Shown here: positions 37,925 through 41,704 of the stretch, piece by piece | Layout: the number at the start of each line of letters is the position of its first letter | Numbering within the stretch: the first letter of the stretch is position 1 | From: Candidatus Hermodarchaeum yapensis | GTDB lineage: Archaea > Asgardarchaeota > Hermodarchaeia > Hermodarchaeales > Hermodarchaeaceae | Assembly (NCBI GenBank): GCA_016840405.1 | Contig: JAEOSK010000012.1 | Span: 1-64,000 of the forward strand | DNA length: 64,000 nt | Direction of reading: 5' to 3' | Notes under the pieces: generated by a model | The model's database searches: none | Seen by the model: the letters and a program-made list of their open reading frames with translations, nothing else | Told to the model about the DNA's origin: nothing | Position numbers and translations under genes: made by a program

Positions 37925-39652
37925 ATGCGTCAACTTCGCCCTCGCTATATTGTCTTTCTCATTGGCATACTCATGATGGTCAGTGGAATTGGCATGGCAT
38001 ATGGGACTCAAACCAACCTAGGAACAGTGCAAACAACGCAATTTTATCTCATCACCAGTGAAGGTGTCCCCATCCACAGCACCTTACAAGTTCCCAATGC
38101 TGCCACGCCTGCCTCCCCATTACCTGGCGTGATTGTCATCCATGGAGTCATGGGAACCAAAGAATGGATTATGGGCTTTGGTATTGAATTGGCACGACGT
38201 GGCTTTGTCGTCTTGACCATCGATGCAGTTGGTCATGGAAATTCCGGTCCTAGCCTTGGTTCAGGAACAGATCGTGGAGGCATCGTCGCGCTCGAATTCT
38301 TGGATAGTCTCCCCTATGTGAGCACTATTGGCATGGTAGGACACAGCATGGGTTCCGGAATTGCCTCTCAAGCCATGAATGTTTCCTCCGTCCAAGTTGA
38401 TAGTTTTGTAATCGTTGGAGGCGGAGGCTTGGTCAATTCCACCTATCCCAATAACGTACTCATCGTTACGGGTTTGTATGATGAATTGTTCAACATTCCT
38501 GGAATGTTGGATGCCTTAGCCACTCCTTTCAATACCACCGCTCCAGTGATTCCCGGGCAACTCTACGGAAGTTTTGTCACAGGGACAGCACGAAAAGTTG
38601 TGATTCCCCAATCAAATCATCTGTTTGAAATCGTCGACCCCTATGCCATTAGTGAATCTGTCGACTGGCTCTTGAACAGTCTCAAAGGCTCTCCCGACGC
38701 TTATTGGATTCCTGCCCAAAACCAAATCTATCCCATATGGATTCTTGGGGGATTACTTGCCTGCATTGGTGCCATACTTTCAGTGTTAGCTCTTTTTACG
38801 ATTCTCATCCGTTTCGGGCCCTTCCGGCAAATCCAACAATCTCCCAACTCCTCGTATTTCGCTAGCACACCTGTATATCTGGGGCTAGGTCTACTCTATG
38901 GAGTCAGTGGCCTTGTTACACTATTTGCCCTATTACTGGTTGATATCCCCCTCTACTTCACTCAAGGGTTGGGATTATCTGTAGCTTTAGGACTCTTGGC
39001 AGGAGGACTGGTTACCCTCTTAATCCTCCTTGGAATCAAATTCTATCAAATCAAAAAATCCAAGAATCCTCCAACTTGGAACGACTACGGTGGATTCAAT
39101 GGCAAACCCAACCACTTAGTGAAAATAATCGGACTCGGATTTCTACTAGGCTTCATCGGCATAGCTTGGCTATACCTCTGGGTGCTTCCCGTTGACCTCC
39201 TTCTCGCCCTTGACTTCCGAGCATTTCTCCCCTTTCTCAAAGCCGTCTCACCAGTACGAGCTACCTACATCCCTGTCTACTTCTTACTGCTTCTGCCCTT
39301 CGTCTTAATCGAAGCATTATGGATCATGGGGTTGTTAAGAACTGCGCCCAGGGATAGATGGTGTACAACGCAAACCGTTTGGACTGTCAAGGCGATCTTC
39401 ATCAAAATCCTACTCTACGCTTCAATCATAATCATCCAAACCCTAGGAAGCATTGCGATTGGTAGTTCGCTCATCTCTGGGTCCATCGGCTTCCAGCTTA
39501 TCTACCTCTACATGTTCATCCCATTTTTCGCAGTGTCTACTACAGTAATCGCTTGGTCTTACCGGATTAGCAACCGCTTCTACATTGCCGTCGTCTTCAA
39601 TGCATTCCTCTTTGCTTGGCTCATGGCATCCATTCTCCCCATCTACATCTAA
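37925..39652 (+). CDS. Alpha/beta hydrolase with a C-terminal polytopic membrane domain
   Basis: HG oxyanion motif, GHSMG nucleophile elbow, D and H candidates, about 8 C-terminal TMs. Confidence 0.88.
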   Translation: MRQLRPRYIVFLIGILMMVSGIGMAYGTQTNLGTVQTTQFYLITSEGVPIHSTLQVPNAATPASPLPGVIVIHGVMGTKEWIMGFGIELARRGFVVLTIDAVGHGNSGPSLGSGTDRGGIVALEFLDSLPYVSTIGMVGHSMGSGIASQAMNVSSVQVDSFVIVGGGGLVNSTYPNNVLIVTGLYDELFNIPGMLDALATPFNTTAPVIPGQLYGSFVTGTARKVVIPQSNHLFEIVDPYAISESVDWLLNSLKGSPDAYWIPAQNQIYPIWILGGLLACIGAILSVLALFTILIRFGPFRQIQQSPNSSYFASTPVYLGLGLLYGVSGLVTLFALLLVDIPLYFTQGLGLSVALGLLAGGLVTLLILLGIKFYQIKKSKNPPTWNDYGGFNGKPNHLVKIIGLGFLLGFIGIAWLYLWVLPVDLLLALDFRAFLPFLKAVSPVRATYIPVYFLLLLPFVLIEALWIMGLLRTAPRDRWCTTQTVWTVKAIFIKILLYASIIIIQTLGSIAIGSSLISGSIGFQLIYLYMFIPFFAVSTTVIAWSYRISNRFYIAVVFNAFLFAWLMASILPIYI

Positions 39653-39733
39653 TCCAAAGGTTACAGGGGTTCTATCGCAAGGTTAAAGCAGAAGGATATC
39701 CCTCATTCACAGTGAAGACTTGGAGATCCAGAT

Positions 39734-41704
39734 ATGTCTGATGATCAGTTCTGGTTGCTAGATGCCGCCTACGACGCTGACAATGGACATGTGCAGCTCA
39801 CCTATCTCCAAACCCCTGCCCAAAAGCTGCACACGGTCCTGGCTGACTTTATTCCCTATTTCTATGCTCTTCCACCAAATCTCGGTGAGTCTGTTAAGCG
39901 AAAGGAATTGATGCAAAACGAGTTCATCGAAGTGGCTCGTATCCCACACACTTCTCGTGCACAAACGGAACGCGAATGGGAACGTGACTTGAGCCCGGAA
40001 TTGAGCTTCATCTATGATCAAAACCTCCGATTTGGAAGTCCCCATAAACAAACAGAGCAGGGACTTCAACTTGATGCCCCAATCCCACCTGACCAACTCC
40101 AAGAATTCAACACTCGGTTTGCTCAAATCGCGGAAGAGGACCCACTGAAATTTGATTTTCTCAAGGAGTTTTTTCGATACGCGATCCAACCAGTTCCCGA
40201 CCTTCCACGGGACCTTCTCGACATCAATGAGAACTTCGATGAATCACGAATCCTGTGGGGCATAATGTTAGCGCGCATCGCCAACATTCATTTCTCCCGT
40301 GCTCTCAAAAGCCGTCGTGTCTCCGACTGGATTCGTTCCATGCTGCATACAACCTATCGCCATCTCGATATTCTCATCCCCAGCCCCGAAGAACTCACAC
40401 TAGGTCATACTCCACATCGCGTTGAAGGCGCGCTCACTATTGCACCCAAACCCGGGACCTATTACAACATGACTGTCGTCGATTTCGAATCCCTGTACCC
40501 CAGCCTCATCGACCGATACAATCTCAGCTACGAAACCATGGATTGTCAACACGACGAATGCAAGACACATAGCGTTCCAGATGAACCTCATTACATTTGC
40601 ACCAATCGCCGAGGAATTTTCAGTGCACTTATCGGGGCGCTGAAAGACTTACGCATTCACTGGTTCAAACCCCTCAGCCGACAAACTGACCTACCCAAAG
40701 CAGAACGGGAGCACGCGACAACCATCTCAGATCTTCTCAAATTACTTCTCGTGAGTAGCGGAGGTGTAACAATACGCATTCGTGGACTAGCCTCCCCTCC
40801 TCTAGCTGAATCCATGATGGCCTATGGACGCTGGGCCTTACGATCTAGCTGGGATTTTGCTATTGAACATGGCATGCGCCCCATTTACGGAGATACTGAC
40901 TCGCTCTTCTTAGACCATCCAACAGCCAAACAAGTGAAATGGCTCATCGCAAAAGTGAAGGACGAACTTAAACTTCGTCTAGCTGTGGATGTCGTATACC
41001 CACTATGTGTATTCAGCTCAGCAAAGAAAGCCTACTTTGGAATACTGCCCGATGGAACACCCGACCCTAAAGGCATCACCCTAGGAAAATCGAACACTCC
41101 ACCACGGTTCCGTCAAATCTTCTTGGAAGTCGCAAAACCCCTCGTCGGAGTGGATTCTCCCAAAAAGCTAGCCAACGCTAGACCTGAAATCGTAGAAATC
41201 CTCCAACACCAAATCGCCGCTCTTCGTCATGGTGAATTTACCGTTGAAGATATGGAGTATAAGGTGAAAGTCTGGAAAGCTGAAAAAAATCTCAAAAGAG
41301 GAAGCGGGCTAGCCCAACCCTACCAAGCCATGCAACAGCTCACCGATAAGGGAATCAAAGTGAAAAAACGCGAAGAAATTGGATTCGTCAAAGTCAAGCC
41401 CTTCCGCTACGGTTCTCGCACCTTTAGTGTCAAACCCACACGCATGGCAACTCGTCACGAAATTGATGTCCCAGACTATATCCGCAAACTTGAGATGGCG
41501 TTCGAACAGGTTCTTGCCCCCCTTCAAATCGAATTTCCCAAGAAACGGTCACAAGGACTTGATTCATTTCTTTCAGAAGCTCAGCACGAACCTTTTACTA
41601 CTGATGAAAGCGAATCAGACTCCTCTGGTCGATGGGATTCAAAGGATCAACAGAAACGACTGCAAGATTTTGTAGAGTCTAATGACTTCGACAATACCGG
41701 TTAG
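39734..41704 (+). CDS. Family B DNA polymerase, PolB1-derived, lacking the 3'-5' exonuclease domain
   Basis: DFESLYPS, YGDTDS, KKAYFG; PolB1-like N-terminus; no ExoI-III motifs; 656 aa. Confidence 0.9.
   Translation: MSDDQFWLLDAAYDADNGHVQLTYLQTPAQKLHTVLADFIPYFYALPPNLGESVKRKELMQNEFIEVARIPHTSRAQTEREWERDLSPELSFIYDQNLRFGSPHKQTEQGLQLDAPIPPDQLQEFNTRFAQIAEEDPLKFDFLKEFFRYAIQPVPDLPRDLLDINENFDESRILWGIMLARIANIHFSRALKSRRVSDWIRSMLHTTYRHLDILIPSPEELTLGHTPHRVEGALTIAPKPGTYYNMTVVDFESLYPSLIDRYNLSYETMDCQHDECKTHSVPDEPHYICTNRRGIFSALIGALKDLRIHWFKPLSRQTDLPKAEREHATTISDLLKLLLVSSGGVTIRIRGLASPPLAESMMAYGRWALRSSWDFAIEHGMRPIYGDTDSLFLDHPTAKQVKWLIAKVKDELKLRLAVDVVYPLCVFSSAKKAYFGILPDGTPDPKGITLGKSNTPPRFRQIFLEVAKPLVGVDSPKKLANARPEIVEILQHQIAALRHGEFTVEDMEYKVKVWKAEKNLKRGSGLAQPYQAMQQLTDKGIKVKKREEIGFVKVKPFRYGSRTFSVKPTRMATRHEIDVPDYIRKLEMAFEQVLAPLQIEFPKKRSQGLDSFLSEAQHEPFTTDESESDSSGRWDSKDQQKRLQDFVESNDFDNTG

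Follow-up and report, generated by a model that had tools for sequence, protein, structure and literature searches.

A PolB1-derived family of archaeal DNA polymerases lacking the proofreading exonuclease domain

The locus considered here raises the question of what role is left to a replicase-related DNA polymerase once its proofreading domain is gone. It lies in Candidatus Hermodarchaeum yapensis, within a stretch of 64,000 nucleotides that was analysed as a whole and is referred to below as the window (positions 1 to 64,000 of contig JAEOSK010000012.1, assembly GCA_016840405.1; contig C33 in our numbering), and it encodes a family-B DNA polymerase of 656 amino acids. The host genome is a 2.7-Mb metagenome-assembled genome (MAG), 86% complete. 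An original prediction, made from the sequence of the window, had described the protein as a PolB1 derivative with an excised proofreading domain, a rewired motif B and two boxes resembling the PCNA-interacting peptide (PIP) motif. We conclude that the gene belongs to a PolB1-derived family without a proofreading domain and that its product is most likely a clamp-bound, error-tolerant repair polymerase, engaged in mismatch or lesion extension or in gap filling and not acting as the main replicase, a reading that we regard as reasonably probable.

Absence of the exonuclease domain from a PolB1-type protein

The gene and the N-terminal part of its product are organized as follows:
39734..41704, + strand: whole gene of the PolB1-derived family-B DNA polymerase without exonuclease domain, 656 residues (open reading frame, stop codon counted in)
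39734..40210, + strand: PolB1-type N-terminal domain, residues 1-159, alignable with the corresponding domain of full-length B1 and fitting 1s5j from residue 1 in the model; it holds the motifs WLLDAAYD (7-14), FIPYFY, WERDL (82-86), IYD (93-95, in IYDQNLRFG), DPLKF and QPVPDLPR (152-159)
40211..40264, + strand: deletion junction, residues 160-177, defined by alignment and interval count; DLLDIN, a remnant of the ExoI strand (DIE of B1 changed to DIN), and then a short linker that leads into the post-exonuclease helix
40265..40435, + strand: post-exonuclease helices MLARIAN (178-184), VSDWIRSML (196-204) and LIPSPEEL (214-221), with the decayed YxGG/A motif RVEGAL

Every motif quoted in the original prediction was recovered in place in the 656-residue open reading frame. 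A Pfam search of the protein returned PF00136 as its sole domain (residues 186-594, E 2e-21) and no match to the exonuclease domain PF03104. Among the NCBIfam models the highest score was that of the PolB1 equivalog NF004417, 327 bits and thus under the cut-off of 780, whereas the PolB2 model NF004416 gave just 70.8 bits. The closest solved relative by sequence is PolB1 of Saccharolobus solfataricus (1s5j, E 1e-59), in which residues 398-840 of the chain are matched by residues 177-614 of the window protein. The same structure was the top match (Z 34.1, root-mean-square deviation 3.2 Å, 504 residues aligned, model residues 1-605) to an AlphaFold2 model computed from a family alignment of 25 sequences, and the Thermococcales PolB structures ranked after it. 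The model has a mean predicted local distance difference test (pLDDT) score of 86.8, with disorder confined to residues 605-656 (pLDDT <50 from 605 onwards), and its comparison with 1s5j reveals N-terminal, palm, fingers and thumb regions of the PolB1-type fold.

In order to place the deletion, the short family was aligned with 30 full-length PolB1-like proteins. The segment QPVPDLPR-DLLDIN falls on the ExoI strand of B1, '..P.PE....A(V/L)DIE', and everything from this ExoI remnant to the helix ahead of MLARIAN is missing, ExoII and ExoIII included. The interval between residues 159 and 178 amounts to 18 residues in the window protein and to 17-20 in 29 family members; the same interval has a median of 210 residues (202-229) in 42 full-length B1 enzymes, 125-141 in five PolB2 and 187-208 in seven B3-like enzymes. 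As judged from this alignment, the family has lost its entire 3'-5' proofreading exonuclease domain, some 190 residues, and by the same measure this complete loss goes further than the decay of the exonuclease domain in PolB2. The predicted excision is therefore borne out, both by the missing PF03104 match and by the 18 residues against a median of 210; the N-terminus does stop at QPVPDLPR and the sequence resumes at the post-exonuclease helices, the only correction being that the gap measures 18-20 residues and not about 15.

The motif that follows the junction has changed as well. At the aromatic position of YxGG/A a Tyr or Phe is present in 41 of 42 B1 enzymes, while all 29 short forms compared have Val, Leu or Ile and all five PolB2 have Asp; in the window protein this residue is Val230, and nine residues have been deleted just before the motif. 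Truniger et al. reportedly found in 1996 that YxGG/A coordinates the polymerase and exonuclease modes. We hypothesize that this switching motif has decayed in the family.

Companion polymerases, phylogeny and distribution

Three PolB genes were found in the genome, the short form being one of them. A second, full-length PolB1 was sought and located on another contig (C40:11573-16576, minus strand); its open frame of 1668 residues retains the exonuclease domain, contains two inteins and scores 969 bits with NF004417. The third gene encodes a PolB2 (C39:112515-116312, minus strand) with HGIVD as motif C and NF004418/NF004416 as best models. PolD DP2, a Y-family polymerase and PCNA (C13:24564-24905) are also encoded, and no B3-type polymerase gene was found in this 86% complete genome. 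One of the PolB1 inteins interrupts motif A, at the position of short-form residues 252/253, and the single intein of PolB2 lies inside motif B, between KWLLVVC and FGYLG; DP2, with an open frame of 1698 residues, probably carries an intein too, and the exonuclease-less short form has none.

A homologue search over 1.8 billion cluster representatives delimited the short family as a discrete set of proteins of 614-664 amino acids scoring at least 400 bits, followed after a gap by full-length B1-like proteins with at most 278 bits. Three trees were inferred from 430 polymerase-domain columns, namely a quick LG+G4 tree of 83 rows, a quick mixture tree of 49 rows and a careful LG+C20+F+G4 tree of 49 rows; the support values quoted are those of the careful tree, and the quick trees give the same topology. 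The short forms constitute a clade (100/100) that is joined with B1 (100/99), PolB2 stands apart (100/100) and the B3-like outgroup is separate. Together with 1s5j as best solved relative, this grouping upholds the predicted derivation from PolB1. Closest to the short forms among full-length sequences are three B1-like proteins on long branches (96/83), which have kept their exonuclease domains; their placement may be a long-branch effect, and the exact position of the short family inside B1 is unsure.

The Asgard short forms make up a clade of their own (100/100) nested among those of Bathyarchaeia type (99/97), which were monophyletic in 0 of 200 bootstrap trees. Unlike its short form, this Asgard family's full-length PolB1 clusters with other Asgard PolB1. 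Because the Asgard clade lies inside Bathyarchaeia sequences, horizontal transfer is suggested, and the topology would fit one ancient exonuclease loss with a later transfer from Bathyarchaeia, or close kin, to the ancestor of the Asgard family. The gene was thus probably acquired from Bathyarchaeia rather than produced by a recent deletion in its own lineage.

The distribution is uneven. The short form occurs in 18/18 genomes of the family to which the window belongs and in no other Asgard family among 201 Asgard genomes sampled, the remaining ones matching solely via full-length PolB1. A species-level genome scan kept 80 loci, 18 in Hermod-type MAGs and nearly all others in Bathyarchaeia; most of the Asgard MAGs with a short form are labelled Hermodarchaeota or plain Promethearchaeota, while Thor- and Odinarchaeota each appear as a label once. 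Of 121 genomes sampled from the class to which one Bathyarchaeia genome (G201) belongs, 13 had the short form. Five Bathyarchaeia genomes hold full-length B1 and short form together, and four of these five have a B2-like gene too. Two members with 41-43% identity to the query (DATKLC010000111.1 and DATIYC010000058.1) lie on contigs of 5.2 and 12 kb in MAGs labelled as bacteria (Krumholzibacteriaceae and Acidiferrales), and are most likely mis-binned Bathyarchaeia contigs and not cases of transfer to bacteria.

An unusual architecture could by itself point to an assembly artefact or to a pseudogene formed recently by deletion in the organism's own PolB1. The probability of such an origin is negligible, and it was rejected on three grounds: all 146 sequences, drawn from many assemblies, have the same junction, the gene is under purifying selection, and the organism's own PolB1 is a distant paralogue in another clade. 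In fact, artefact and chance are excluded because the same architecture recurs in these 146 relatives, which come from independent assemblies, and in each of the 18 own-family genomes, so that the junction foreseen in the original prediction is real. Selection was measured as the ratio of nonsynonymous to synonymous substitutions (dN/dS), which is 0.12 at a dS of 0.45 for the closest orthologue pair only, dS being saturated for other pairs.

If the gene were a viral polymerase, or one from another mobile element, that had settled in the chromosome, its patchy distribution and the evidence of transfer between phyla would be accounted for. Nevertheless, no member of the family was found on viral contigs in IMG/VR, synteny around the short form is conserved among Hermod-type genomes (and only among these, by ORF clustering of 32 loci), neither integrase nor capsid nor terminal-protein genes were seen among the neighbours, and the GC content of the gene is the same as in its flanks; we consider this explanation most improbable.

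The neighbourhood of the gene consists of an alpha/beta-hydrolase membrane protein upstream and a zinc-ribbon membrane protein downstream, separated from the gene by 81 and 88 bp, respectively. The 81-bp gap upstream (39652-39733) contains TTAAAG at 39684-39689, about 45 nucleotides ahead of the ATG, and GGAG 8 nucleotides ahead of it; these elements would be compatible with expression of the polymerase gene from a promoter and a ribosome-binding site of its own, rather than by co-transcription with the upstream hydrolase gene. At Bathyarchaeia loci the genes that recur beside the short form are those for radical-SAM and lipoate-ligase proteins, without connection to DNA.

Archaea are known to have split PolB genes, and proofreaders that act in trans, such as DP1, also occur; with PolD present in the genome, an exonuclease supplied in trans, by a split arrangement or by a partner protein, could keep the synthesis of the short form proofread. 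Such an arrangement seems quite improbable to us. No stand-alone PolB-type exonuclease gene was found in the assembly, where PF03104 and PF10108 match full-length PolB1 alone and tblastn with the exonuclease region of the organism's own PolB1 returned nothing beyond that protein; the absence of a trans-acting exonuclease gene is not proven, since the genome is only 86% complete. The lack of a conserved neighbour and the decayed YxGG/A motif likewise speak against it.

Catalytic core, motif B and predicted clamp-binding motifs

Residue counts were taken from a family alignment of 146 members, 43 of Asgard (Hermod) type and 103 of Bathyarchaeia type. The remaining features of the gene are:
40481..40504, + strand: motif A DFESLYPS, residues 250-257, with catalytic Asp250 and steric-gate Tyr255; invariant in 146/146
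40544..40600, + strand: palm Cys/His cluster C271-x-H273-x2-C276...H286-x2-C289, a possible metal site
40649..40765, + strand: fingers, with Arg307, Lys312 and motif B KLLLVSSGG (residues 336-344; Lys336 kept, Asn changed to Val340, Tyr to Gly343)
40886..40903, + strand: motif C YGDTDS, residues 385-390, with both catalytic aspartates; invariant in 146/146
41024..41035, + strand: KxY primer-binding motif KKAY, with K432 and Y434 invariant
41549..41572, + strand: first box SQGLDSFL, residues 606-613, the ancestral C-terminal L-D-x-F-[FLM] motif of PolB1, PIP-like
41573..41650, + strand: acidic, Ser-rich linker, residues 614-639, predicted disordered (pLDDT <50) and present only in the Hermod-type clade
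41651..41674, + strand: second box QKRLQDFV, residues 640-647, a predicted PIP box of the Q-x-x-L-x-x-F form near the C-terminus

Asp250, Tyr255, Arg307, Lys336, Tyr385, Asp387, Asp389, Lys432 and Tyr434 are invariant throughout the alignment and Lys312 is a Lys in 145 of the 146 members, so the protein has, as far as its residues tell, the features of a catalytically competent family-B core. The intact motifs A and C of the original prediction are hence found across the family. The Cys/His cluster between motif A and the fingers (C-x-H-x2-C...C) is common to full-length B1, with a variant form in PolB2; being found in full-length B1, it is an ancestral feature and no novelty of the window gene. 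The view that the protein is a non-catalytic structural or regulatory relic, comparable to the inactive C-terminal half of Pol epsilon, could draw on the non-canonical motif B and the loss of the exonuclease domain, and we judge it very improbable, given that metal-binding residues and those contacting the deoxynucleoside triphosphate are invariant or nearly so in 146 members and that dN/dS is 0.12. PolB2, moreover, had been regarded as inactive on weaker evidence than this before it proved active (PMC8764526).

Motif B is rewired as originally described, and the change has two layers of different extent. At the Asn position a Val is present in 145/146 family members, and comparison with full-length B1 (KxxxNASYG) and with PolB2 (KWxLV(T/V)CFG) indicates that the Asn-to-Val substitution is common to the short family and PolB2; only the change at the Tyr position is specific to the Asgard type, with Gly in 43/43 of its members and Tyr in 103/103 of the Bathyarchaeia type. 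By counting from K560 in KxxxNSxYG, this Tyr is at the position of Tyr567 in the RB69 polymerase. An RB69 Y567A mutant keeps normal catalytic parameters (PMC3792054), with weaker mismatch discrimination and better mismatch extension (PMC3377560, PMC3792054). We hypothesize that the pocket for the nascent base pair is relaxed through the motif B changes, because Asn is replaced by Val as in the PolB2 extenders and, in the Asgard clade, Tyr by Gly at the position of RB69 Tyr567.

The two PIP-like boxes of the original prediction turned out to be of unequal standing. The second, QKRLQDFV, is a lineage-specific candidate PIP box of canonical Q-x-x-L-x-x-F spacing, its pattern Q[KR][RQ]LxD[FY] being present in 42/43 Hermod-type and 0/103 Bathyarchaeia-type members, at the end of an added acidic, disordered stretch of about 40 residues that only the Asgard clade has. 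The first, SQGLDSFL, with its misplaced Gln, corresponds to the ancestral PolB1 motif L-D-x-F-[FLM], which is found at the C-terminus of full-length B1 (RRLDTFFG in the organism's own PolB1) and of all short forms. Other proteins of the same genome have comparable tails, QQSLDAWSG in Fen1, QASLSDYY in the Y-family polymerase and QTLLDPHLRG in PolB2, and DP2 ends in QTTLKGFTPSNP, of which QTTLKGFT is the PIP-type part; in Fen1 (..WS) and DP2 (..FT) the eighth PIP position is likewise non-aromatic. Since the tails of Fen1, DP2 and the Y-family polymerase match it, QKRLQDFV fits the PIP pattern of this organism, non-aromatic eighth residue included. The AlphaFold2 model aligns with the chain of the Pfu PolB-PCNA complex (3a2f) up to residue 614. 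On the evidence of these motifs we infer that the window protein is bound to PCNA through one or both of its C-terminal boxes, the Asgard clade having presumably gained a flexible acidic tail with a PIP box of its own. The N-terminal PIP-bearing extension of full-length PolB1 is absent from the short forms. Many full-length B1 enzymes of Bathyarchaeia and Asgard archaea have a PIP-like motif at the extreme N-terminus (e.g. QKRLTEYI, QKRLDDFS, RRLDEFF or QCSLLEFF) in addition to the C-terminal L-D-x-F-F, and these may have two clamp-binding ends.

Taken together, the protein would be an active enzyme, with its N-terminal domain, palm, fingers and thumb retained, that is unable to proofread; from this expected lack of proofreading, the putatively relaxed pocket and the predicted clamp tether, a specialised clamp-bound repair polymerase follows as the most likely role. 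Several observations weigh against this role. It is not evident why a genome that already has PolB2 and a Y-family enzyme should need a third polymerase for damage tolerance; no DNA-repair genes lie in the neighbourhood of the window locus, and ORF clustering of 32 loci found no neighbour conserved between Asgard and Bathyarchaeia loci. In the tail, the Gln of SQGLDSFL is off the canonical PIP spacing, and QKRLQDFV agrees with the consensus Q-x-x-[LIM]-x-x-[FYW]-[FYW] at its Q, L and F positions, whereas its position 8 is a Val and so non-aromatic. Finally, the loss of Asn and Tyr from motif B could lower activity rather than only fidelity.

The enzyme might otherwise be a replicative helper, which would extend primers or fill Okazaki gaps without proofreading, in the manner of eukaryotic Pol alpha, whose exonuclease activity was lost, and hand off to PolD or PolB1. 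The intact catalytic core, the PCNA-type motifs and the coexistence with PolD and PolB1 would suit such a function, as would its retention in all 18 own-family genomes, which fits a housekeeping role. Its patchy distribution (13/121 in the Bathyarchaeia-class sample and a single Asgard family) counts against a core role in replication, since most relatives do without it, and no primase or replisome neighbourhood was seen around the gene; a helper role is in our opinion unlikely. All five alternatives weighed here are less well supported than a clamp-bound repair polymerase.

Three further observations concern the N-terminal domain and one orthologue. The Asgard-type short forms have a 7-residue deletion in this domain relative to the Bathyarchaeia type (residues 72-82 of the window protein, nucleotides ~39947-39979, family alignment columns 113-127), in a segment that we take for the counterpart of the Val93 region in Thermococcales PolB, where it forms the wall of the uracil 'read-ahead' pocket. 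The position aligned with Tyr7 of that pocket (Y13 in the window protein) is occupied by Tyr or Phe in the Asgard type and varies among Bathyarchaeia-type members. The orthologue of another genome in the same genus (G110:C73:7375-9306, minus strand) lies in an open frame of 708 residues and is matched in two pieces (query 1-258 and 252-613), which suggests an insertion of about 50 residues near motif A or a local duplication.

Significance and comparison with known systems

Archaeal B-family polymerases are usually sorted into B1, B2, B3 and the minor groups B4-B10, and the GenBank labels of the present family are 'hypothetical protein' or 'DNA polymerase domain-containing protein'. No description of an exonuclease-less B1 family was found in the open-access literature; it may have been described elsewhere. 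The relevant sections of the main surveys, those of Makarova 2014 and Kazlauskas 2020 among them (PMC4104785, PMC7544198, PMC12680538, PMC11791011), and of PMC8764526 make no mention of a B1 lineage without the exonuclease domain, and two supplements of PMC7544198 contain none of the family taxon names or accessions tried. A 2025 study of the Asgard replisome, which likewise does not mention such a lineage, states that truncated sequences were removed.

Should the enzyme be active, the family would be a second independent route from a replicase to a proofreading-less specialist, PolB2 being the first. A wider proposal, which we put forward tentatively and consider possible more than probable, is that 'PolB1 minus exonuclease' adds a fourth kind to the chromosomal B-family polymerases of archaea, one in which the domain was cleanly excised once from the replicase and the pocket then relaxed (Asn to Val, later Tyr to Gly), and which passed from Bathyarchaeia to the ancestor of one Asgard family and there gained a new flexible PIP tail. 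If true, archaea would have evolved their own counterpart of eukaryotic Pol zeta independently, a natural enzyme with an unusually permissive use of substrates, including mismatches, lesions and perhaps modified or ribonucleotides. The two types also offer a natural experiment on how motif B residues and clamp tethering determine fidelity, since Tyr is retained in motif B of the Bathyarchaeia type, while the Asgard type combines Gly with the PIP tail. For polymerase engineering, small B-family enzymes that lack an exonuclease and have a widened pocket would be of practical interest.

Among the known systems, archaeal PolB1 (1s5j; NF004417/NF004419/NF004415) is the nearest. It is the best match of the short form in sequence and fold, and the two belong to one clade; an N-terminal domain of B1 type, motifs A and C, the CxHxxC...C cluster and L-D-x-F-[FLM] at the C-terminus are common to both. 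The short form differs in being without the exonuclease domain and the N-terminal PIP-bearing extension, in scoring below the 780-bit cut-off, in its motif B (KxxxVSxGG instead of KxxxNASYG) and in the lost aromatic residue of YxGG/A. Moreover, it forms a long separate branch in which the Asgard copies group with Bathyarchaeia and not with Asgard PolB1.

The catalytic subunits of eukaryotic Pol alpha and Pol zeta are likewise paralogues of B-family replicases that lost proofreading and became specialised, for priming and lesion extension, respectively. These keep an inactivated exonuclease fold and have C-terminal metal-binding domains that bind B subunits, whereas in the short form the exonuclease fold is wholly gone and a PIP tail is found instead; no specific phylogenetic link between them was seen in our analysis.

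The likenesses to PolB2 and to RB69 Y567A support a specialised role and fall short of proof. PolB2, represented by the damage-inducible Dpo2 of Sulfolobus, is also a B-family paralogue without proofreading that exists beside replicases, and it is described as an extender of lesions and mismatches (PMC8764526). It shares with the short form the Asn-to-Val change in motif B and the loss of the YxGG/A aromatic residue, hence the similar role predicted here. In contrast, its motif C is HxxxD with one conserved Asp (HGIVD[SC] in the organism's own PolB2 and in four Bathyarchaeia PolB2) and not YGDTDS, it keeps a decayed exonuclease domain (125-141 residues in the interval) and it belongs to a separate clade. 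PolB2 lies in an operon with an inactivated RadA (iRadA) and PPB2 (PMC11791011, PMC4104785); no such iRadA-PPB2/arCOG07300 operon was found around the short form, as judged for PPB2 by gene sizes and Pfam matches. We accordingly do not assign the protein to PolB2, given its motif C, its place in the trees, its operon context and how little of the exonuclease is left, in line with the distinction made in the original prediction, since YGDTDS stands against HGIVD in the organism's own PolB2 and the two clades separate with 100/100 support.

RB69 gp43 Y567A, lastly, has a small residue in place of Tyr at the same position of motif B. This point mutant was engineered in a phage replicase whose exonuclease domain is present, while in the Asgard short forms the substitution is natural, fixed in the clade and joined with the Asn-to-Val change and the loss of the exonuclease.

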